From a virus, in the UHGV virus genome UHGV-0126501: a stretch of 46,221 nt of DNA, one strand, 5' to 3'. The position numbers and the translations under genes were made by a program. A model generated the notes under the pieces. It saw only the letters and a program-made list of their open reading frames with translations. It was not told the DNA's origin and made no database searches. Below, piece after piece: positions 5,172-20,792 of the stretch (position 1 is its first letter; every line of letters starts with the position of its first letter).

Positions 5172-5810
5172 TTACCAGTTAATCCATAGCGGATAGTGTT
5201 CAGCATAAATATAGCTATACACATCCAGGTTGTATTTGCGGTCTGTCCTTAGCAGGTCGCAAATACACGCCGCAGCTTCCAGGGCGGAAGCTTTGTTGCT
5301 GAATAACCATGTAGCAACATTCCAGCGATTATCTTTATCCCACTCTTTTGCGAGAGCTGACACCACGAAGGAGCCGTTGGTGTTGCCATCAAATACTTCC
5401 GTTTCCAGATTTTTAAGTAATGCCTGGTGAATTTTTGCCAGGTATTCAGTCGGAATTTCGCCACGGATTCGGATAAGGTTGTCATAAACAAACATGTTTC
5501 CCGCATATGGCGATTTTTCTTCCTTGTTTTTTAAACCAGCATCATGAGCAAACTGATCAATTTCTTCTTCCGTTGGTTTCGTGTTGATGTTTTGCGCTGT
5601 CGTTTCTGCAATGAGTTTTGCTTTATTTTCTACACAATGATTGTTTGTGAACGAATATGAATACAGTCCGGTAAAAGAATTGCGGACATGATTTGATAAA
5701 TTTCTGATGAACAGTTTATCTACTAATATCATTGGGTTCCGCGCCAGTTGCGAGCGAATCACATCAGCGGCCATTTCCTGTATTGAAATTGGTAAATCTT
5801 TAAATTCCAT
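5172..5810 (-). CDS. Hypothetical protein in the leftward early (pL-type) operon
   Basis: Long ORF; ATG at 5810 has GAGGT 5 nt upstream (the ORF-track start at 5822 has no SD). No recognisable motifs. Confidence 0.55.
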   Translation of the reverse strand: MEFKDLPISIQEMAADVIRSQLARNPMILVDKLFIRNLSNHVRNSFTGLYSYSFTNNHCVENKAKLIAETTAQNINTKPTEEEIDQFAHDAGLKNKEEKSPYAGNMFVYDNLIRIRGEIPTEYLAKIHQALLKNLETEVFDGNTNGSFVVSALAKEWDKDNRWNVATWLFSNKASALEAAACICDLLRTDRKYNLDVYSYIYAEHYPLWINW

Positions 5811-5821
5811 CGTCAACCTCA

Positions 5822-5974
5822 TCAGTCAGTGTTTCTGGCTAACCAGCGACGCGCGCCAGCTTCGGTTTTAAACGTTTTGCTTTTGGTATATGTCATCGCC
5901 GTGAACGTGCCGTTCTGGTTGGGAAACACGCCGTACACCAGAGATTCGTTGTTGCCAAGATCGATAGTATCCAT
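5822..5974 (-). CDS. Small hypothetical protein, first gene downstream of the leftward operator
   Basis: ATG at 5974 preceded by GAGGT 6 nt upstream; 50 aa. Confidence 0.4.
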   Translation of the reverse strand: MDTIDLGNNESLVYGVFPNQNGTFTAMTYTKSKTFKTEAGARRWLARNTD

Positions 5975-6144
5975 GCTGACCTCATTTCCCCTTAACGCCG
6001 GGGTGGCGGAACAAAAACCTGCTGCATAGTTAAAGTTGAACCCTGCCGTCATGTTCTTACGCCTCGGGCTGGCTACTTAACCCCTGACCACTGCCTGGTA
6101 ACTCGAAGTATTGCCCTGCGTTCTGTGGGACGGGGTGGGTTGGT

Positions 6145-6195
6145 ATTTTTAGTTTAATAAACATTAAACTTAAGTCAAGTAAAAACTAAACCGTG
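6145..6195. promoter_or_regulatory. Left operator/promoter region (OL/pL-like): inverted copy of the right operator motifs; candidate leftward promoter -35 TTGACT (6178..6173) and -10 TAAACT (6156..6151)
   Basis: TTAAGTCAAGT here is the reverse complement of ACTTGACTTAA at 7163-7173, and GTTTAATAAAC mirrors GTTTATTAAAC at 7176-7186; AAACTAAACCG recurs as ACACTAAACCG at 7204-7214. Confidence 0.5.
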
Positions 6196-6261
6196 GGCGT
6201 AACAAACACAACGCTTTTGATAAAGTCGTTGCGGTTGTTATGTTTCTATTGGTAGTGAAAG

Positions 6262-6540
6262 TTAGGGAAACTGGCGTCTTGCGTGGATCACGTTTACTAC
6301 TTCAACGCTTGATGTTGTTACGCGGTATAGAATTATATAGTTAGGGTGGGCTACAATCTCACGCAAGCCAGGTACTCTGTCGCTTGGTGGGTATAAATAC
6401 GGATGTTCGGATAACGGCAGCACACAACCCCTTAATCGCTGCCATAAGCGTTCAGCCGCATCTATGTCGAAACGAGCAATATAACTAGTTATATCATCTA
6501 GGTCGGTATCTGCGTTTTCAAGCCATAACACGGGTAACAT
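6262..6540 (-). CDS. Type II toxin, RelE/ParE superfamily
   Basis: About 92 aa from Met at 6540; C-terminal ...IVAHPNYIILYRVTTSSVEVVNVIHARRQFP matches the RelE/ParE C-terminal pattern; start overlaps the upstream antitoxin stop. Confidence 0.7.
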   Translation of the reverse strand: MLPVLWLENADTDLDDITSYIARFDIDAAERLWQRLRGCVLPLSEHPYLYPPSDRVPGLREIVAHPNYIILYRVTTSSVEVVNVIHARRQFP

Positions 6541-6541
6541 T

Positions 6542-6733
6542 TTACTGCTTGCTCCGTTCCTTGCGCATTTTAGCAAAGCGTTCTGCCATTCTGCGCTCAA
6601 CTTCGTCATGGGGAATTGCTGGGCGCGGATCTGCAAGGCTCGTTGCTACTTTCGCACGCAGCCATTCGTTGTAACTGTTTTCTTGTTCAATGGTTTCAAA
6701 TTCAGAAACCATTGGTGAAAGGGCTCTATTCAT
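6542..6733 (-). CDS. Cognate antitoxin (ParD/RelB-like small protein)
   Basis: 63-aa ORF with strong SD (GGAGG) before the ATG at 6733; immediately upstream of and overlapping the toxin. Confidence 0.6.
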   Translation of the reverse strand: MNRALSPMVSEFETIEQENSYNEWLRAKVATSLADPRPAIPHDEVERRMAERFAKMRKERSKQ

Positions 6734-6753
6734 GTTTCCTCCGGTTTTATAAC

Positions 6754-7125
6754 TCAGGCGCGGCGGCATTTTTGCGCCGCAATCCATCTCGCTATGAGAT
6801 CTTCCATTGATTCTTTTTTCTGCTTTAACTCGCTGATTATCTGGCGTTGCTCATCCTCAGGGAAGGCTGAAAAAATCTGCAATAATTCCAGTTGATTAGA
6901 CGTTAACCCTGCATGTGGTGGAGAAACTTCCGGTTGTTCTGCGTATTCCGCATCCAGATACCCTTCCGGCATCCCGTATGTTTGCTCTATTCTTCTGGCA
7001 GCCTTTTCTCCAAACGAGGCTCTCCCACTCATTAGTTGAGATAGGTAGCTCTTCTCTTTGGGTGGCAGAGTTTTATCTTTAAACCACTCCTTGAGACGTA
7101 AACGGCGAATTTCTTTTTTTTGCAT
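6754..7125 (-). CDS. CI-like prophage repressor (HTH, no S24 peptidase domain; RacR-like)
   Basis: Divergent from the cro-like gene across an operator-rich spacer; HTH-like N-terminal segment (LSQLMSGRASFGEKAARRIEQTYGMPEGYL); ATG at 7125 sits just after a candidate -10, suggesting a leaderless mRNA. Confidence 0.65.
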   Translation of the reverse strand: MQKKEIRRLRLKEWFKDKTLPPKEKSYLSQLMSGRASFGEKAARRIEQTYGMPEGYLDAEYAEQPEVSPPHAGLTSNQLELLQIFSAFPEDEQRQIISELKQKKESMEDLIARWIAAQKCRRA

Positions 7126-7222
7126 GTGGTAATTATCTTTAGTAATCACTAAACAAGCAAATACTTGACTTAATGGTTTATTAAACACTAAACTCGCAAA
7201 AAAACACTAAACCGAGGAAGGT
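7126..7222. promoter_or_regulatory. Right operator/promoter region (OR): candidate pR -35 TTGACT (7165-7170) and -10 TAAACT (7189-7194); candidate leftward pRM-like -35 TTGCTT (7160..7155) and -10 GATAAT (7137..7132)
   Basis: Repeated CACTAAAC motifs; canonical hexamers with 17-18 bp spacers on both strands; mirrored copy at 6150-6195. Confidence 0.5.
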
Positions 7223-7525
7223 ATGACATTAAAAGAGTTTATTAAATCATTGAGGGTTGGTGATGCTAAGAAATTCGCGGCCAGACTTGGCGTATCGCCA
7301 TCTTACTTATCGCAAATGGCGTCTGGACGAGCAGCTATATCTCCAACCCGCGCCCTTATGATCGAATCTGCGACGGAAGGCCAAGTAAGTAGGGCGGAGC
7401 TACGACCCCATGATTGGGAACTTATTTGGCCTGAGTATGCGAGCGGCATTCGTTTGGGGCAAACACATGTAGTTCATGCTGAAGGTGATTGTAGTGCATG
7501 CTTATCTGATGGAGTTGATTCATGA
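7223..7525 (+). CDS. Cro/CI-family HTH regulator (Cro-like, YdaS-type)
   Basis: 100-aa ORF divergent from the repressor; SD GAGGAAGG; HTH segment AKKFAARLGVSPSYLSQMASGRAAIS. Confidence 0.75.
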   Translation: MTLKEFIKSLRVGDAKKFAARLGVSPSYLSQMASGRAAISPTRALMIESATEGQVSRAELRPHDWELIWPEYASGIRLGQTHVVHAEGDCSACLSDGVDS

Positions 7526-7947
7526 AAATCAAGCATGAACACATCCGCATGGCGATGAATGCCTGGGCGCATCCGGACGGCGAGAAAGTACCGGCTGCGA
7601 AAATTACCAAAGCGTATTTCGAACTGGGTATGACGTTCCCGGAATTGTACGACGACAGCCATCCGGAAGCCCTGGGCCGTAACACCCAGAAAATTTTCCG
7701 CTGGGTGGAGAAAGACACTCCTGATGCGGTTAAAAAAATTCAGGCGTTGTTACCAGCGATCGAAAAAGCGATGCCGCCTCCGCTGGTGGCCCGAATGCGC
7801 AGCCACAGTTCCGCTTATTTTCGGGAGTTGGTAGAGACGAAGGAACGGCTGGTGAAAGATATTGATGATTTCGTTGCATCAGCGATCGTTCTGTTCGATC
7901 AGATGAATCGTGGTGGCCCGGCAGGAAACACTCTGGCTGTGCATTAA
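7522..7947 (+). CDS. YdaT-like / CII-like regulatory protein
   Basis: 141-aa ORF overlapping the cro-like stop (ATGA); position equivalent to cII / Rac ydaT. Confidence 0.55.
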   Translation: MKIKHEHIRMAMNAWAHPDGEKVPAAKITKAYFELGMTFPELYDDSHPEALGRNTQKIFRWVEKDTPDAVKKIQALLPAIEKAMPPPLVARMRSHSSAYFRELVETKERLVKDIDDFVASAIVLFDQMNRGGPAGNTLAVH

Positions 7948-7960
7948 TTGGGTAATAAAT

Positions 7961-8470
7961 ATGAGTAATGACAAAAAATTGACACTGAGCGTTTACGAAA
8001 ACAGTCCGCACATCTGGCGTGGCGGTTTATCTGATGTGGAGCTGGCAGAGTGGTTGATACATAAAGCTAATGCGCTGCTCTGGCGTTTGTCAGCCAGAGA
8101 ACAGCGCAAGGAAACCAGAATAAAGCTGGCTGATGCAGAAGCGTGTGCCGGGCTTATTGAGGATTATACAAATCTTGGTATTTCTTCAGCAGAGAGTGAT
8201 CCCATTCAGCCTCTGAGCAGGGAGTCAATCCAGCACGCTGGTTGTATGGCACATCTTGTAACTGCTCGTCAACATGAGGTGGGTATTGGATCACTTCCGG
8301 TGGGATATTCGCTGATTCCAGAGCTGGTTGAAGCAAGAAAATCAGTTCAGAAAAAGAGAGATGACGCACTTCAATTATTGAGAGAGCACTATGGCGCGAT
8401 ACCAGAATGCGAACAGCGTCGATACCCTGAAGGTTATGAATGGATGCAGTCTCTTTTTGAAGTTCGCTAA
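7961..8470 (+). CDS. Hypothetical early protein
   Basis: ATG at 7961 just after the previous stop; same strand as the early right operon. Confidence 0.45.
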   Translation: MSNDKKLTLSVYENSPHIWRGGLSDVELAEWLIHKANALLWRLSAREQRKETRIKLADAEACAGLIEDYTNLGISSAESDPIQPLSRESIQHAGCMAHLVTARQHEVGIGSLPVGYSLIPELVEARKSVQKKRDDALQLLREHYGAIPECEQRRYPEGYEWMQSLFEVR

Positions 8471-8687
8471 TCAATATGTCGAGACGAAGGTATGTTTCGG
8501 CGCGCAGCCAGGCTCTGTAATCCGGGAGCATTTCGGGGCTGTTACACCAGCGGTTTGTTGCTGCAACATTTAATACATGAGCCTGATAAAGGCTTTTCAA
8601 AAAATACATGTCGAACCTCCTCTGGTTCTGTTGATTGGGAACCACAGATTATATCCGGAGGAAGGTTCGGCACCAGATGAGGTAGCC

Positions 8688-12450: not shown

Positions 12451-12730
12451 AAGGAAACAAAACAGAAACAACAATTGCCGTTATCTGTTGTTACCATGGC
12501 AAGTAAACGTATCTCAGGCGAGCGCATTGCGCCGTTCTGACGCAGATAAACTAGCCTGGATAGATGGTGCTGGCAATAAAAAATAGCGTTTTCTTATCGG
12601 TGTCGGTAAGATTGCTGCGGGTGCTTGAGGCTGTCTGCCTCGGGCATGCCACTGTAAGGCAGACAGAGAAAAGCCCCAGTTAACATTACGCGTCTTGCAG
12701 GACGCTTAACATTAATCTGAGGCCCAATCT

Positions 12731-12943
12731 ATGCCATACAAACATAGGTTAGCCTCTTACGTGCCGAAAGGCAAGGAGAAGCAGGCTATGAAGCAGCAAA
12801 AGGCGATGTTAATCGCCCTGATCGTCATCTGTTTAACCGTCATAGTGACGGCACTGGTAACGAGGAAAGATCTCTGCGAGGTACGAATCCGAACCGGCCA
12901 GACGGAGGTTGCTGTTTTCGTGGACTACGAATCTGAGAAGTAA
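12731..12943 (+). CDS. Mok-like in-frame N-terminal extension of Hok (modulator of killing)
   Basis: Upstream in-frame ATG gives a 70-aa product, analogous to chromosomal MokC/HokC where Mok is an N-terminally extended Hok. Confidence 0.45.
   Translation: MPYKHRLASYVPKGKEKQAMKQQKAMLIALIVICLTVIVTALVTRKDLCEVRIRTGQTEVAVFVDYESEK
12788..12943 (+). CDS. hok: Hok/Gef-family type I toxin (small membrane peptide)
   Basis: MKQQKAMLIALIVICLTVIVTALVTRKDLCEVRIRTGQTEVAVF... matches the Hok/Gef signature (TM helix, LTRKxLCE, periplasmic tail); SD AAGGAGAAG. Confidence 0.9.
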   Translation: MKQQKAMLIALIVICLTVIVTALVTRKDLCEVRIRTGQTEVAVFVDYESEK

Positions 12944-13154: not shown

Positions 13155-13334
13155 ATGAGCTACGCACTAAAAAAACACCCGCGATTGACTATTCCCCCTC
13201 GCGATAAAAGCGTTGTGGCAGCTCCGCGCCCGGCTATTGATGAAAATTGCACACATCGTGAGCAGGTGAAAAATGCTTTCGATTTCGGTTTTTCTCGTTA
13301 CGAGAAGGCAATGGAAGAACTTTCAAAAGTGTAA
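13155..13334 (+). CDS. Small ORF upstream of doc; candidate antitoxin
   Basis: 59-aa ORF (MSYALKKHPRLTIPPRDKSV...EELSKV) ending 18 nt before the Doc start; by position only. Below the ORF-track length cutoff. Confidence 0.35.
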   Translation: MSYALKKHPRLTIPPRDKSVVAAPRPAIDENCTHREQVKNAFDFGFSRYEKAMEELSKV

Positions 13335-13352
13335 TAATGGGTATTGTGCTCT

Positions 13353-13838
13353 ATGGCTGAGATTGTTGAAGGAGTGCACTATCTTTCGGTTGATGATCTT
13401 ACTGAAATCAATCGCCTTTTAATTGAGCTTCAAACACCAGATGAACCTGTAGGTGTGCTGAGTGTTGATAATTTAAGTTCTTCTCAGGCCCGTCCCAGCA
13501 TGGTTCGATGGTATGAACAGACTAATGACATGTTTGTACTGGCATCGGTATTGATTGAAAGTCTGATTCAGAATCATCCGTTTGCTAATGCGAACAAACG
13601 AACAGCTATGATGGCTGGTTACGTCTTCTTGTTGTTGAATGGCTATGAGTTAACAGCACCAGGCGATGAAATCGTGGAAATGGCAGAGGGACTGGCCTGC
13701 AAAACCTATACTCGAGAAGATCTCGAGAACTGGTTGTGTTATTGGTCTCGTGCGTATGACAGTCGGGAATTATGTAAAACAGGCGCAACTATTGTTTTGT
13801 ATGAAACTATCAAGCTTAAAATAGAACAGCAAAACTAA
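13353..13838 (+). CDS. Doc (death-on-curing) / Fic-family toxin
   Basis: Doc-type Fic motif HPFANANKRTA (H-x-F-x-[DN]-[AG]-N-K-R). Confidence 0.8.
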   Translation: MAEIVEGVHYLSVDDLTEINRLLIELQTPDEPVGVLSVDNLSSSQARPSMVRWYEQTNDMFVLASVLIESLIQNHPFANANKRTAMMAGYVFLLLNGYELTAPGDEIVEMAEGLACKTYTREDLENWLCYWSRAYDSRELCKTGATIVLYETIKLKIEQQN

Positions 13839-15287: not shown

Positions 15288-15659
15288 ATGCTCATAGATT
15301 TGGTTTTGCCTTACCCGCCGACGGTGAACACCTACTGGCGACGTCGTGGCAGCACATATTTTGTATCAAAAGCCGGTGAGCGTTATCGCCGGGATGTGGC
15401 ACTTATTGTTCGCCAGCAGCGGTTGAAATTAAACCTGTCCGGAAGGCTGGCGATAAAGATCATTGCAGAGCCGCCGGATAAGCGCCGTCGTGACATGGAC
15501 AATATTCTGAAAGCACCACTGGATGCACTGACACATGCGGGGTTGCTTATCGACGACGAGCAGTTTGATGAAATCAATATAGTGCGCGGTAAGGTCGTTC
15601 CTGGTGGTCGGTTGGGCGTGAAGATTTGCGAAATTAGAGGTGATAGTAATGGGGCGTGA
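15288..15659 (+). CDS. rusA: RusA-family Holliday junction resolvase
   Basis: 123 aa; LPYPPTVNTYW...RRRDMDNILKAPLDALTHAGLLIDDEQF matches RusA conserved regions including the catalytic Asp cluster. Confidence 0.85.
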   Translation: MLIDLVLPYPPTVNTYWRRRGSTYFVSKAGERYRRDVALIVRQQRLKLNLSGRLAIKIIAEPPDKRRRDMDNILKAPLDALTHAGLLIDDEQFDEINIVRGKVVPGGRLGVKICEIRGDSNGA

Positions 15660-16005
15660 TATGTATGAGGTTTTAGACCGCTGGGGGGCATGGGCTGCAG
15701 CAGAAAATAGTGGTGTCGATTGGCAGTCGATAGCGGCAGGCTTCAAGGGGCTTCTACCACACGGTAAAAAGTCACGCCTCCAGTGTGATGATGATGAAGG
15801 TATTATGATAGACGGTTGTGTGGCCCGCCTGCGGAAATATAAACCAGAAGAATATGAGCTGATCATTGCCCACTTTGTTATCGGGATTTCACTGAGGACG
15901 ATTGCAAAAAGAAGAAAATGTTGTGATGGAACTATTCGCAAAGAACTTCAAACAGCTATGGGGTTCATATCAGGTGTTTTGTCGCTGTTAAGCGAAGCCC
16001 AATAG
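15649..16005 (+). CDS. Late-gene antiterminator Q-like protein (short Q family)
   Basis: Position after rusA as in DLP12/lambdoid phages; ATG at 15649 with AGAGG SD, overlapping the rusA stop; Cys-containing C-terminal half. Confidence 0.55.
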   Translation: MGRDMYEVLDRWGAWAAAENSGVDWQSIAAGFKGLLPHGKKSRLQCDDDEGIMIDGCVARLRKYKPEEYELIIAHFVIGISLRTIAKRRKCCDGTIRKELQTAMGFISGVLSLLSEAQ

Positions 16006-16017
16006 GGCTTCGCTTAA
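15988..16017. other. 13-bp perfect stem hairpin spanning the convergent stop codons of Q (+) and the C5-methyltransferase (-)
   Basis: TTAAGCGAAGCCC-AATA-GGGCTTCGCTTAA; no U-tract on either side. Confidence 0.6.
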
Positions 16018-17054
16018 ATCGACGAAATTATAGCTCTCCCAAGTGCTTCAGCCATCTTGGGAGGAACCGCATTCCCAATTTGTTTTGCTTTTGATACTAA
16101 CGACCCCGTGAAGGAATAGTCTAATGGGAATGTCTGTAATAACGCAGCCTCTCTAACTGAAATTGCTCGGTCTTGTTCAGGATGCCCGAAACGTCCATTC
16201 GAATAGCTTATACACCTAGTCGTTAAGCCACTTGCAGGTTTGTCCCATGAAAGACGTCCATAAACATCCGTATGCCCTTTATATTTCTTATGGCATTCTA
16301 AGATCAAATTCTCAGGCCAAGACTCCCTTCCTTTTCCCTCTGGGGTAGCTTTTATGCGTTTAATATTCAGTTCGGACAGCCTGGCTGCTGTGTGATCAAT
16401 TATCTCTTTATGAGTTTCACCTGCAGCTATAGGTGGTAAATTACCGATCCAATCTCTTACCGTTGCAAACGGAGTTTCTACTCCGTCATGAGTTTTGGGT
16501 GGGAGCTTAATATGTGTGTGTCTTGACGCCAGCAAAACAAAACGTTCACGGGTCTGAGGAACTCCGAACCACAAAGCAGGAACAACACCAAAATCAACGT
16601 TGTAGTTATGATGAGTTAAAACTTCAAGAAATTTCTGGAAGTTTCCGTTATTGATATCGACGTTTTGGATTCCAGGCACATTTTCTATCAGTACGAAATC
16701 AGGAACATAATAAGATACAAAACGTGCAAATTCAGTCAGGAGATCTTTCCTGGGATCGTCGTTGTTCCGTGTTTTGTTCTGTTTTGAGAATGGTTGACAT
16801 GGGGCACATCCGCAAAACAAAGTCAGGGCTTTACATTTTTTTGAGTCAGAAATTAGATGATTAATATCTTCAACATGTGTATCTTTGATATCACCATTGA
16901 TGAAATGTGCTAATGGATTGTTTTTCTTGAAGGTATTAGACGAGTCTAGATCAATATCTAAACCAAATATAATTTCCATACCCACTGCTTTTAGGCCTGC
17001 ACTAGTGCCTCCGCAGCCGGAAAAAAAATCGTATACATGTATCTTTTTAGTCAT
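16014..17054 (-). CDS. DNA (cytosine-5)-methyltransferase
   Basis: Motif I FSGCGG, motif IV PCQPFS, motif VI ENV, motif VIII QTRERF, motif X GNAVPP. Confidence 0.9.
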   Translation of the reverse strand: MTKKIHVYDFFSGCGGTSAGLKAVGMEIIFGLDIDLDSSNTFKKNNPLAHFINGDIKDTHVEDINHLISDSKKCKALTLFCGCAPCQPFSKQNKTRNNDDPRKDLLTEFARFVSYYVPDFVLIENVPGIQNVDINNGNFQKFLEVLTHHNYNVDFGVVPALWFGVPQTRERFVLLASRHTHIKLPPKTHDGVETPFATVRDWIGNLPPIAAGETHKEIIDHTAARLSELNIKRIKATPEGKGRESWPENLILECHKKYKGHTDVYGRLSWDKPASGLTTRCISYSNGRFGHPEQDRAISVREAALLQTFPLDYSFTGSLVSKAKQIGNAVPPKMAEALGRAIISSI

Positions 17055-17057
17055 TAT

Positions 17058-18848
17058 CTACCTCACTCTTGGTCTGATAGTATCATTATCTAAAAAGATT
17101 TGCAGCAACTCTCGAGTTTTCGTTAACATTTCATGATCATTCGGTATTTTATTTAGCATTCTAATTTGAGTTTCAAAGATATCATCACTAGTAACATTAT
17201 CCAGCCCAGTATCGAGTTTACAAATTTCCTTAGTAATTTGTTTAGCATCTTGAACGTCTTTCGAAATTAATTCTTTATATTCCTTGTAGTCTCCATAGAC
17301 ATTTTCAATAAGAAATATTTCAGGCGTGTAAACAGGAAGGAAACCGATGCTATCGTGAATGAAATCGATGAAATCTCTTTGCATTTTATATTTTTGGCTA
17401 TGATTAGCTACACCTTTAGAGCCATCGCAGTTAAATTTGATGTCTTGGTTTGTTATTGATTTTATAATATCCTGAAGATTAGGGTTCTCGTTTTCTGGTA
17501 TTGAGTCAGAGGTTGGGTAGTTATCAACAATAGATTGATCACCATCTAGCAAAAAAATAACGTTTTTAACGTTAGCAACACATAATGGGGCTGCTAAAGT
17601 TTGAAAAATACTTCCGGCCCCTCCAGGAAAGTGCTTGACTTCAAAGGAGTTTAATAATGCTTCACCACCTGCTTTAAGAGCTTTCTCTACAAACCTCTTA
17701 GCCAAGCGATCTTCTACAATAACTGTTCTCTTCTCGATTCGCTCACCAAGGATGAAGAAAGATTCTTCTGGGCTGACATTTTGCAGAACATCAACTTTTC
17801 CTAATTTATCATTCAGGCAAAATAATTTTATAGCATTTTTCGGTAAGTCTTTTACTATTGTTGATGAATGAGTGGATATCACAATTTGATGTTTCTTTTT
17901 AATTGCTTGTTCAGATAAAAATTCCATTAATTGGCATTGTGCTGAAGGGTGAAGCGATACTTCAGGTTCGTCTAAAAGAATTAGTGATGCGTTTGGACTG
18001 TCTATTAGTTTATGTACTAAAATAGATACGGCGAATTCTCCACTACCAGCGAATGCTTCAGAATATTTTAAGTTTTCTGACTGAAGTATAATTGTTGGAG
18101 CTTTGTCATTCGTAAATAAGCAATGCTCGATAAGTCTAATACTAGTGTATTTTCGCCCTAAAATTTTGCTGATTGCCTCAACTTTATTTTTGCCTAATAA
18201 AGTATTGACAAAGAGTTTATCTTTTTTACCTTTGTGGGGTTGATATTTTTTTAGATCGTTATCGATGATTTCTCTTAGCATTTGACTGCGTTTTCTAAGA
18301 TAATCCTTCTTGGGATATGTATGAAAGTCAGAATGATAAAAGAATTTATCGAATGCACTTATCGTTGCTCTGAAATCTAAATAGATTACATTTTTATCAA
18401 TGGCTTTCCATCGTGTTTTTAATTGGTTATCCGAAAGTATTGTATCAGGCATAGTAGCCATATTATCTGATTTTAGAGGCCTAGAAGGTTCCCAGTAGTC
18501 AGGATCATTTTCTTTAGAAATTCGGGTTTTGATTACTTCAACAATAGAATCAGTAGCTTTATCATAATATCCATAAATGAATCTTGAGCGACCACCGTCT
18601 TTAATTTCATCCACATCTGTAGAAAACCATAGGCTACCTAATGAATAGTTGTTTGGTGAGCCGAAAAGGGCTCTTAAAACTGAGCTTTTATTCGTTCCAT
18701 TTTGACCGACCAACGCCGTGACTGGATAATCAAAATCGATTTTGCTTCCTTCGGCGAGGTTTTTGAAAAATGGGAAACGAATATGTCTAATAAATGGCTC
18801 AATCTGAGCGGATGCCATAATTTGTTTTAGTTTTAAATGGTTGTTCAT
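17058..18848 (-). CDS. OLD-family-like ABC ATPase with C-terminal TOPRIM-like acidic motifs (putative ATP-dependent nuclease)
   Basis: P-loop GQNGTNKSS, Walker B/D-loop LILLDEPEVSLHP, C-terminal VIVEDR and LLDGDQS motifs; 3 nt upstream of the C5-MTase on the same strand; AT-rich. Confidence 0.65.
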   Translation of the reverse strand: MNNHLKLKQIMASAQIEPFIRHIRFPFFKNLAEGSKIDFDYPVTALVGQNGTNKSSVLRALFGSPNNYSLGSLWFSTDVDEIKDGGRSRFIYGYYDKATDSIVEVIKTRISKENDPDYWEPSRPLKSDNMATMPDTILSDNQLKTRWKAIDKNVIYLDFRATISAFDKFFYHSDFHTYPKKDYLRKRSQMLREIIDNDLKKYQPHKGKKDKLFVNTLLGKNKVEAISKILGRKYTSIRLIEHCLFTNDKAPTIILQSENLKYSEAFAGSGEFAVSILVHKLIDSPNASLILLDEPEVSLHPSAQCQLMEFLSEQAIKKKHQIVISTHSSTIVKDLPKNAIKLFCLNDKLGKVDVLQNVSPEESFFILGERIEKRTVIVEDRLAKRFVEKALKAGGEALLNSFEVKHFPGGAGSIFQTLAAPLCVANVKNVIFLLDGDQSIVDNYPTSDSIPENENPNLQDIIKSITNQDIKFNCDGSKGVANHSQKYKMQRDFIDFIHDSIGFLPVYTPEIFLIENVYGDYKEYKELISKDVQDAKQITKEICKLDTGLDNVTSDDIFETQIRMLNKIPNDHEMLTKTRELLQIFLDNDTIRPRVR

Positions 18849-19450: not shown

Positions 19451-20497
19451 ATGGCCAATACTGTAAAAATATCCAGTTGTGAGTTAATCAACGCTGATTG
19501 CCTGGAATTTATCCAGACCTTACCGGAAAACTCTGTCGATCTGATAGTCACAGACCCGCCATACTTTAAAGTGAAGCCTGAGGGCTGGGATAACCAGTGG
19601 AAGGGCGACGATGATTACCTGAAATGGCTGGATCAGTGTCTGGCGCAATTCTGGCGGGTACTGAAACCTGCCGGAAGTCTCTACCTGTTCTGTGGTCATC
19701 GCCTGGCATCTGATATCGAAATCATGATGCGTGAGCGCTTTAATGTGCTGAACCACATTATCTGGGCGAAGCCGTCCGGACGCTGGAACGGATGCAACAA
19801 GGAAAGCCTGCGGGCGTATTTCCCGGCAACAGAACGCATTCTGTTTGCAGAACATTATCAGGGGCCATACCAGCCCAAAAATGACGGCTATGCGGCAAAG
19901 GGGCGCGAGCTTAAGCAGCACGTGATGGCTCCGCTGATTTCTTACTTTCGTGATGCGCGTGAATCACTGGGGATAACGTCAAAACAGATAGCTGAAGCCA
20001 CCGGAAAGAAAAACATGGCTTCGCACTGGTTTGGTACCAGTCAGTGGCAGTTACCGAATGAGGCCGATTACAGTAAACTACAGGCGCTGTTTGCACGTGT
20101 GGCGGCAGAAAAACACCAGCGCGGTGAACTGGAGCAGCCACACCACCAGCTGGTCAGCACATACAGCGAACTGAACCGGCAATATGCCAGCCTGCTGGAG
20201 GAATACAAATCACTGCGGCGTTATTTTTCCGTATCGGCTGTCGTTCCTTATACGGATGTCTGGACGCACAAGCCCGTGCAGTATTATCCGGGCAAACATC
20301 CCTGTGAAAAACCGGCGGATATGTTGCGTCAGATAATTACTGCCAGCAGTCGTCCTGGCGATTTGGTCGCAGATTTTTTTATGGGGTCGGGGTCGACAAT
20401 AAAAGCGGCACTGTCGCTGGGACGCAGGGCGATTGGCGTGGAACTGGAAGAGGAACGTTTTAATCAGACGGTCAGAGAAATAACGAAAGATTTTTAA
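19451..20497 (+). CDS. DNA methyltransferase, beta-class amino-MTase (N6-adenine or N4-cytosine)
   Basis: Motif IV DPPY (LIVTDPPYF) precedes C-terminal motif I FxGxG (DFFMGSGST). Confidence 0.85.
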   Translation: MANTVKISSCELINADCLEFIQTLPENSVDLIVTDPPYFKVKPEGWDNQWKGDDDYLKWLDQCLAQFWRVLKPAGSLYLFCGHRLASDIEIMMRERFNVLNHIIWAKPSGRWNGCNKESLRAYFPATERILFAEHYQGPYQPKNDGYAAKGRELKQHVMAPLISYFRDARESLGITSKQIAEATGKKNMASHWFGTSQWQLPNEADYSKLQALFARVAAEKHQRGELEQPHHQLVSTYSELNRQYASLLEEYKSLRRYFSVSAVVPYTDVWTHKPVQYYPGKHPCEKPADMLRQIITASSRPGDLVADFFMGSGSTIKAALSLGRRAIGVELEEERFNQTVREITKDF

Positions 20498-20715: not shown

Positions 20716-20792
20716 GCGGGTATCGTATAATGGCTATTACCTCAGCTTTCCAGGCTGATGATGTGGGTTCGATTCCCGTCACCCGCTCTCCA
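20716..20792 (+). tRNA. tRNA-Gly(UCC)-like element, probably degenerate
   Basis: Cloverleaf can be drawn: acceptor GCGGGTA, D-arm with GG, anticodon stem TCAGC/GCTGA with loop TTTCCAG (anticodon TCC), T-loop GGTTCGATTCC. But A7-C66 mismatch, two G-U pairs in the T-stem, and a TCTCCA 3' end instead of CCA. Confidence 0.45.

Follow-up and report, generated by a model that had tools for sequence, protein, structure and literature searches.

The immunity region of the virus genome UHGV-0126501 was analyzed in the context of the full 46,221-nucleotide stretch (hereafter, the window, whose numbering is used throughout). At positions 6148-7222, a gene for a CI-like repressor, paaR2, is followed on the same strand by the genes for an antitoxin, paaA2, and a toxin, parE2, and operator regions flank all three. 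In bacteriophage lambda, the corresponding slot, between cI and OL, holds rexA and rexB, an exclusion system co-transcribed with cI. On the sequence comparisons described below, the region very probably belongs to a lambdoid prophage of the CP-933P/Sp12 type and constitutes its paaR2-paaA2-parE2 immunity cassette, with the toxin-antitoxin (TA) pair paaA2-parE2 carried as cargo in the rexA-rexB slot. The cassette is already known: structures of its proteins have been solved, its regulation has been the subject of a dedicated study, and the analogy with rexAB is in print. The genes of the cassette and the two divergent genes next to it are as follows.

6262-6540, minus strand: parE2, ParE-family toxin, 92 aa (PDB 5cw7_B; PF05016)
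6542-6733, minus strand: paaA2, antitoxin, 63 aa (PDB 3zbe/5cw7; PF21217)
6754-7125, minus strand: paaR2, repressor analogous to CI, 123 aa (PDB 7nkv/8c3k/8c3l, N-terminal domain)
7223-7525, plus strand: ydaS, Cro analogue, 100 aa (YdaS_toxin PF15943, HTH_3)
7522-7947, plus strand: ydaT, CII analogue, 141 aa (YdaT-family match)

Genes and operators of the immunity cassette

ParE2 is identical to PDB chain 5cw7_B at 91 of 92 residues (E = 1.9e-59), with N9 here and S9 there, and its alignment covers all 89 positions of the Pfam profile PF05016 (59.7 bits; cut-off, 23). Against the RelE/StbE model of NCBIfam (TIGR02385), the protein scored 21 bits, under the cut-off of 27.9, and it therefore falls in the ParE branch rather than the RelE branch. 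Contigs encoding the exact N9 allele occur in 97 blocks of a public collection. Residues 2-63 of PaaA2 are identical to those of the Escherichia coli O157:H7 antitoxin in PDB 3zbe (also 5cw7). The sole Pfam match of PaaA2 is PF21217 (70.7 bits); the Pfam scan detected no DNA-binding family in this protein, hence no ribbon-helix-helix match, and NCBIfam names it a RelB-family antitoxin. A first-pass annotation of the window, made from the sequence alone, had described the two proteins as a RelE/ParE-type pair and had proposed hidden Markov model assignment of both as a check. The ParE part of this label is borne out and the RelE part is not, the assignments being PF05016 (ParE_toxin) for the toxin and PF21217 (PaaA2) for the antitoxin.

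The N-terminal, DNA-binding domain of PaaR2 is identical to the protein in PDB entries 7nkv, 8c3k, and 8c3l, named “Phage repressor protein CI,” and the full protein is identical to its O157:H7 counterpart at 121 of 123 positions, with the sole differences at linker residues 66 and 67. The C-terminus shows a weak DicA-like match in NCBIfam; the Pfam scan assigned no family to PaaR2 and hence no S24 peptidase domain. Of the two divergently encoded proteins, YdaS is identical to the O157:H7 protein at 99 of 100 positions and YdaT shows 86% identity to the CP-933P protein. A gap of 20 nt, containing a GGAGG Shine-Dalgarno sequence, separates paaR2 from paaA2, and a single nucleotide separates paaA2 from parE2, the ATG of parE2 beginning one base past the paaA2 stop codon. 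This gene order and spacing would fit a single operon. A minus-strand promoter-like site within parE2 (6521-6493) was taken as a chance match, considering that five such sites were found and 2.9 were expected. The G+C composition of the region shows no anomaly that would mark the TA pair as a recent insertion.

The control elements in and around the cassette are listed below.

6148-6195, minus strand: OL/PL, leftward early promoter (-35 TTGACT, 6178-6173; -10 TAAACT, 6156-6151) with operator repeats
6200-6240, minus strand: hairpin between the parE2 stop codon and PL, followed by UUUGUU
7126-7222, both directions: OR, 97-bp divergent control region with PRM, PR, and repeated operators
within OR, leftward: PRM, starting at the paaR2 ATG
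7165-7194, plus strand: PR (-35 TTGACT, -10 TAAACT)
7137-7154, within OR: operator repeat CTTTAGTAATCACTAAAC
7176-7193, within OR: operator repeat GTTTATTAAACACTAAAC
7515-7532, no strand assigned: YdaT operator OM, TTGATTCATGAAAATCAA, at the ydaS/ydaT junction beside a PRE-type promoter

OL/PL is a mirror copy of OR/PR. The 12-mer TACTTGACTTAA is present at exactly two sites in the window, 6170-6181 on the minus strand and 7162-7173 on the plus strand; about 0.06 matches with at most one mismatch are expected by chance, and none of 100 shuffles yielded two. OL and OR form an inverted repeat of 24 nt at 79% complementarity, which becomes longer when small indels are allowed, and a consensus promoter scan called two outward-firing promoters with the same hexamers, TTGACT and TAAACT, at 7165-7194 (plus strand) and 6178-6151 (minus strand). 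The half-site core ACTAAAC has four copies in the window, all of them within the OL and OR patches; this total does not differ from expectation (4 versus 3.75), and only the clustering is informative. The motif TTGATTN6AATCAA has a single match in the window, at 7515-7532, with 0.03 expected. The RNA of segment 6175-6275 (minus strand) folds with a free energy of -21.1 kcal/mol (z = -3.2), and none of 200 shuffled sequences was as stable. The hairpin at 6200-6240 within this segment may be the terminator of the immunity operon or an RNA-stability element.

The first-pass annotation had located the toxin (6262-6540) and antitoxin (6542-6733) on the repressor strand, directly after a CI-like repressor, and between inverted operator copies at 6150-6195 and 7150-7195. 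All of these coordinates hold, and the operator copies are real, the uniqueness of the 12-mer, the shuffles, and the twin promoters placing them beyond chance.

Relation to CP-933P and distribution of the cassette

The 1,091-bp stretch from OL to OR shows 99.3% DNA identity to E. coli O157:H7 genomes; compared with O157:H7 strain TR01, the 97 bp of OR (7126-7222) show no differences, and OL (6148-6193) is identical as well. The window thus shares with the paaR2-paaA2-parE2 (RAE2) and ydaS-ydaT genes of CP-933P/Sp12 the gene order, spacing, proteins, OR, OL/PL, and YdaT operator. Relative to TR01, the only coding changes between OL and OR are S9N in ParE2 and G66E/G67V in the interdomain linker of PaaR2. 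Outside this interval, the ydaT allele is diverged, and the flanking genes and the prophage backbone differ from those of CP-933P. Identity of the ydaT region to O157:H7 DNA is about 99% until approximately position 7560 and about 82% beyond (7560-7947), a mosaic breakpoint that leaves the DNA-binding N-terminal part of YdaT and its operator conserved and the C-terminal part as a different allele. CP-933P is a cryptic, decayed prophage, whereas the carrier in the window, judged by its open reading frame (ORF) inventory only, looks like a complete lambdoid prophage, with a full lambdoid gene set from integrase to tail fiber, including Q.

The CP-933P system has been described in Hallez 2010 (via PMC8630535), Jurenas 2021 (PMC8630535), and Prolic-Kalinsek 2023 (PMC9986795), and its structures include 3zbe, 5cw7, 5cze, 7nkv, and 8c3k. 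As summarized in PMC8630535, Hallez 2010 found paaR2, paaA2, and parE2 to form one operon, ParE2 to induce the SOS response, and PaaA2 to be degraded by ClpAP and ClpXP. PaaR2 binds the 97-bp paaR2-ydaS intergenic region (Jurenas 2021, PMC8630535), and DNase footprints of PaaR2 and YdaS cover four repeats with the half-site GTTTAGTAA (PMC8630535). The same study showed that PaaR2 is a functional CI analogue, that PR, PRM, and PL are repressed by PaaR2 and by YdaS, and that PRM is activated by low PaaR2. The PRM transcript begins at the paaR2 ATG, yielding a leaderless mRNA like that of cI, and a YdaT-dependent PRE-type promoter provides an alternative transcript of paaR2-paaA2-parE2; beyond the TA genes lies PL933P, with the same -35 and -10 hexamers as PR (PMC8630535). 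The switch is bistable, with heritable expression states, and PaaR2 has no peptidase motif and is unresponsive to mitomycin C (PMC8630535). ParE2 colocalizes with the nucleoid, and the locus stabilizes an unstable mini-F plasmid through post-segregational killing (PMC8630535). The YdaT operator TTGATTN6AATCAA was defined by Prolic-Kalinsek et al. 2023, in whose wording the TA pair “replaces rexA and rexB” (PMC9986795).

Against this background, both the observation and the interpretation in the first-pass annotation are correct and already published, as follows from the match to the CP-933P work. The suggested rexAB-equivalent position agrees with where the pair lies, on the repressor strand in the interval from the repressor gene to OL, and is also stated in PMC9986795, the likeness being positional only. 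Co-expression of the pair with the repressor is supported by the published operon structure of the 99.3%-identical CP-933P cassette, and the proposal that the pair stabilizes the prophage finds its counterpart in the stabilization of unstable plasmids by post-segregational killing at the CP-933P locus (both PMC8630535). Of the two roles that the annotation put forward, exclusion and stabilization, only the second has evidence in its favor.

The resemblance to lambda cI-rexA-rexB lies in accessory genes that are directly 3' of the repressor gene, on the same strand, within the OR-OL interval, and expressed from PRM and PRE in lysogens. The repressors also have in common a leaderless mRNA and the formation of octamers, in the latter case as shown for CP-933P PaaR2 (PMC8630535). 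However, RexAB is a two-protein abortive-infection system, whereas the slot is occupied here by a toxin of the ParE type and its labile protein antitoxin, neither related to it in sequence; and lambda CI contains a RecA-sensitive S24 peptidase domain that the 123-aa PaaR2 lacks. With canonical parDE modules (RK2, Vibrio cholerae, Caulobacter), the pair shares a ParE-fold toxin (PF05016), an unstable antitoxin, and post-segregational killing, but PaaA2 has no ribbon-helix-helix domain and the TA complex does not autoregulate, control being exerted by PaaR2, YdaS, and YdaT. According to the abstracts of PMC8706911 and PMC13048266, ParESO/CopASO of CP4So and PfiT/PfiA of Pf4 likewise comprise a toxin of the ParE/RelE superfamily encoded on a prophage and tied to its maintenance or production; they are two-component systems with DNA-binding antitoxins and lie outside the repressor operon.

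Approximately 570 of 5,426 complete E. coli genomes contain the OL-to-OR cassette at 99% identity or more, and the prophage backbones around it differ, whereas the 2.2-kb region that includes the flanks reaches at least 99% identity in only three genomes. The block 5985-7947 recurs with constant ends in prophages that differ in integrases, replication genes, and head genes, and two metagenome contigs are 100% identical to the window over 6.3 kb. Among 50,697 phage records, the sole carrier is the isolated coliphage Evi (LR597642.1), in which the module is intact; its parE2 (locus L002, 1782-2060, minus strand) is intact as well and is unannotated in the public record. Considering Evi and the apparently complete prophage in the window, the module is not confined to defective prophages.

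Klebsiella phage 5 LV-2017 (KY271399.1) encodes a PaaR2 homologue (45% identity) divergently from YdaS and YdaT homologues, with no TA pair behind the repressor gene. This arrangement supports the view that PaaR2 is a true phage repressor to which the pair has been added as cargo. The PaaR2-like repressor and YdaS-like Cro of this phage (locus L012, 2141-2857) are unannotated in its record.

In further E. coli prophages, the same position holds diverged PaaA/ParE pairs (68% and 67% identity, respectively) that follow repressors with the C-terminal domain of PaaR2 but an unrelated N-terminal helix-turn-helix (HTH) domain. These loci would correspond to the paaR1-paaA1-parE1-type paralogues of other lambdoid prophages, for example, CP-933M. 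In the example from E. coli 04-00955 (locus L013, for which the label paaR1 was assigned by resemblance), the repressor-antitoxin-toxin order and the location between DUF1391/PL and ydaS-ydaT are retained, as is the C-terminal domain of the repressor; ParE and PaaA are 67% and 68% identical to those in the window, and the repressor, 31-34% identical overall, has a classical XRE-type N-terminal domain. Given this unrelated DNA-binding domain, a different immunity specificity is expected. In E. coli 2013C-4974 (NZ_CP027587.1; locus L014, 2488-3799), two repressor genes lie in tandem ahead of the TA pair, in the order PaaR2-like gene (75% identical) next to OR, PaaR1-like XRE-type HTH gene, PaaA (94%), and ParE (89%). 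All PaaR types have a conserved C-terminal domain and differ in their N-terminal domains.

Other accessory genes of the prophage

Two further TA modules are encoded in the window, bringing the number in the prophage to three. A type I hok/sok module occupies 12619-12943 on the plus strand, with a sok RNA match (RF01794, 117 bits) at 12619-12793 and a Hok/Gef ORF (PF01848) at 12791-12943. A second type II toxin, of the death-on-curing (Doc/Fic) family (13344-13838, plus strand, 164 aa), matches TIGR01550 with 126 bits (cut-off, 38.65); the 59-aa ORF before it (13155-13334, plus strand), which matches no family, could encode the antitoxin.

Between the gene for the Q antiterminator (15640-16005), itself just preceded by RusA (15288-15659), and the lysis region, a gene pair on the minus strand (16014-18848) encodes a 346-aa C5 cytosine DNA methyltransferase (16014-17054) and a 596-aa AAA_15/AAA_21 ATPase (17058-18848). 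In PADLOC, the ATPase best matches the candidate system HEC-04 (2.7e-35) and ATPase-Toprim_I-B; it also weakly resembles OLD-family nuclease and retron Ec78 PtuA ATPases. The pair looks like a defense or restriction-modification-like accessory module. An N6/N4 DNA methyltransferase of 348 aa (19451-20497, plus strand) and then a tRNA-Gly(TCC) gene (20716-20788) lie ahead of the lysis genes.

On the minus strand at 5172-6164, PL is first followed by a 35-aa ORF, then by the gene for a DUF1391 protein (5822-6052) and one for a 216-aa protein (5172-5822) without a match in Pfam, NCBIfam, or PADLOC; in the published work on CP-933P, too, no function could be assigned to the ORFs beyond PL (PMC8630535). 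On the other side of the cassette, two long ORFs overlap on opposite strands at 7910-8645. The minus-strand ORF (8154-8645, 163 aa) is a real gene that encodes a phage-associated protein of the ECs1072 family (105 bits; cut-off, 70) and is annotated likewise in a related prophage, whereas the plus-strand ORF (7910-8470) has no support. A search aimed at an SOS-controlled antirepressor, which could account for induction in the absence of a cleavable repressor, found no perfect LexA-box core (CTGT-N8-ACAG) in the 46-kb window; together with the lack of an S24 peptidase domain in PaaR2, this leads one to expect SOS-independent behavior, if the prophage is inducible at all.

Possible roles of the toxin-antitoxin pair

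Each step of the mechanism outlined here has experimental backing in the near-identical cassette of CP-933P and is inferred for the window from sequence identity. In a lysogen-like state, the leaderless paaR2 mRNA from PRM would read through paaA2 and parE2, so that repressor, antitoxin, and toxin would be produced from one mRNA. PaaR2 bound to OR and to the mirror-image operators of OL would switch off PR, which drives ydaS-ydaT and the replication genes, and PL, which drives leftward early genes, such as dicB, and at low concentration would stimulate PRM. YdaS, acting like Cro, would compete for the PaaR2 sites, resulting in a bistable switch, and YdaT, acting like CII at TTGATTN6AATCAA in the ydaS/ydaT junction, would turn on the PRE-type promoter, a second route to the paaR2-paaA2-parE2 transcript. 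As long as the cassette is expressed, PaaA2, a disordered protein that lacks a DNA-binding domain and is degraded by ClpAP and ClpXP, would wrap around ParE2 and neutralize it. Upon loss of the cassette, PaaA2 would decay and free ParE2, leading to the SOS response and cell death, that is, addiction by post-segregational killing. The TA pair would thereby exact a penalty when the immunity region, or the prophage as a whole, is lost or replaced; a role in their retention was put forward as a hypothesis by Jurenas et al. (PMC8630535).

Several points weigh against this picture. Every functional step is transferred from CP-933P by sequence identity, and the proteins in the window, with N9 in ParE2 and E66/V67 in PaaR2 instead of S9 and G66/G67, might not behave exactly as their counterparts do. 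The consensus promoter scan called neither PRM nor PRE, and a simple terminator scan found no canonical terminator on the minus strand after parE2, only the stable hairpin. In CP-933P, ParE2 activity was undetected in either state of the switch (PMC8630535). Evidence for stabilization comes from plasmids only, and any advantage that phage or host might draw from the pair is hypothetical. Furthermore, O157 ParE2 did not bind GyrA59, and its cellular target is unsettled in the literature.

The pair could instead be a purely selfish hitch-hiker that persists by killing segregants and stays linked to a successful immunity cassette. The silence of ParE2 in both CP-933P switch states would fit such an existence, as would the existence of a PaaR2-type immunity region that does without the pair in the Klebsiella phage. 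The near invariance of the OL-to-OR cassette amid variable flanks (at least 99% identity in those approximately 570 of 5,426 genomes) points the same way but could equally mean the recent spread of one immunity type. Moreover, hitch-hiking is hard to separate from stabilization, since addiction itself stabilizes the carrier. We regard a purely selfish pair as unlikely on balance.

Another reading, compatible with addiction, is Rex-like exclusion or abortive infection, whereby superinfection shuts down host expression, PaaA2 decays, and ParE2 kills or arrests the cell, aborting the burst of the invader. The slot and strand of the pair, between the repressor gene and OL as for lambda rexA-rexB, its co-transcription with the repressor, and the protease lability of PaaA2 are all consistent with this role, and so are the presence of the module in the isolated coliphage Evi and in an apparently complete prophage, the latter bearing further accessory modules. 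However, no experiment on it was found: the terms “exclusion” and “abortive” are absent from PMC8630535, and among 24 listed of the 25 papers retrieved that name the module, no title or abstract opening takes up exclusion. ParE2, PaaA2, and PaaR2 match none of the defense models of PADLOC-DB v2, and the Pfam scan gives only ParE_toxin and PaaA2, with no homology to RexA or RexB. These observations render Rex-like exclusion distinctly doubtful.

That PaaR2 is merely the DNA-binding part of a split antitoxin, controlling its own operon in a self-contained three-component TA system, matches how the locus was first described in 2010 (as summarized in PMC8630535) and the E. coli prophage in which a separate PaaR2-like gene precedes a PaaR1-like HTH gene, antitoxin, and toxin, as if these three had moved as a unit, but is highly improbable and largely refuted by PMC8630535, given that PaaR2 represses PR and PL and so controls genes outside the TA operon, that mirror OL/OR sites bracket the genes, that paaR2 is divergent from the genes for the Cro and CII analogues exactly as cI is, and that the Klebsiella phage, which has no such pair, carries a PaaR2 homologue at the repressor position.

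Thus, the preferred reading is that of a phage immunity cassette with an addictive TA pair in the rexA-rexB slot. Within it, we tentatively raise a rather unlikely extension for the complete, possibly inducible prophage of the window and for Evi, namely, that the pair serves as a functional substitute for RexAB and/or as an “immunity lock” that kills recombinants arising from heteroimmune swaps. If true, this would help explain the near-invariant OL-to-OR block amid mosaic surroundings in hundreds of E. coli genomes. For studies of what the pair gains its carrier, be it exclusion or an immunity lock, and of what ParE2 attacks in the cell, the apparently intact prophage described here or phage Evi would offer a setting in place of the defective CP-933P.

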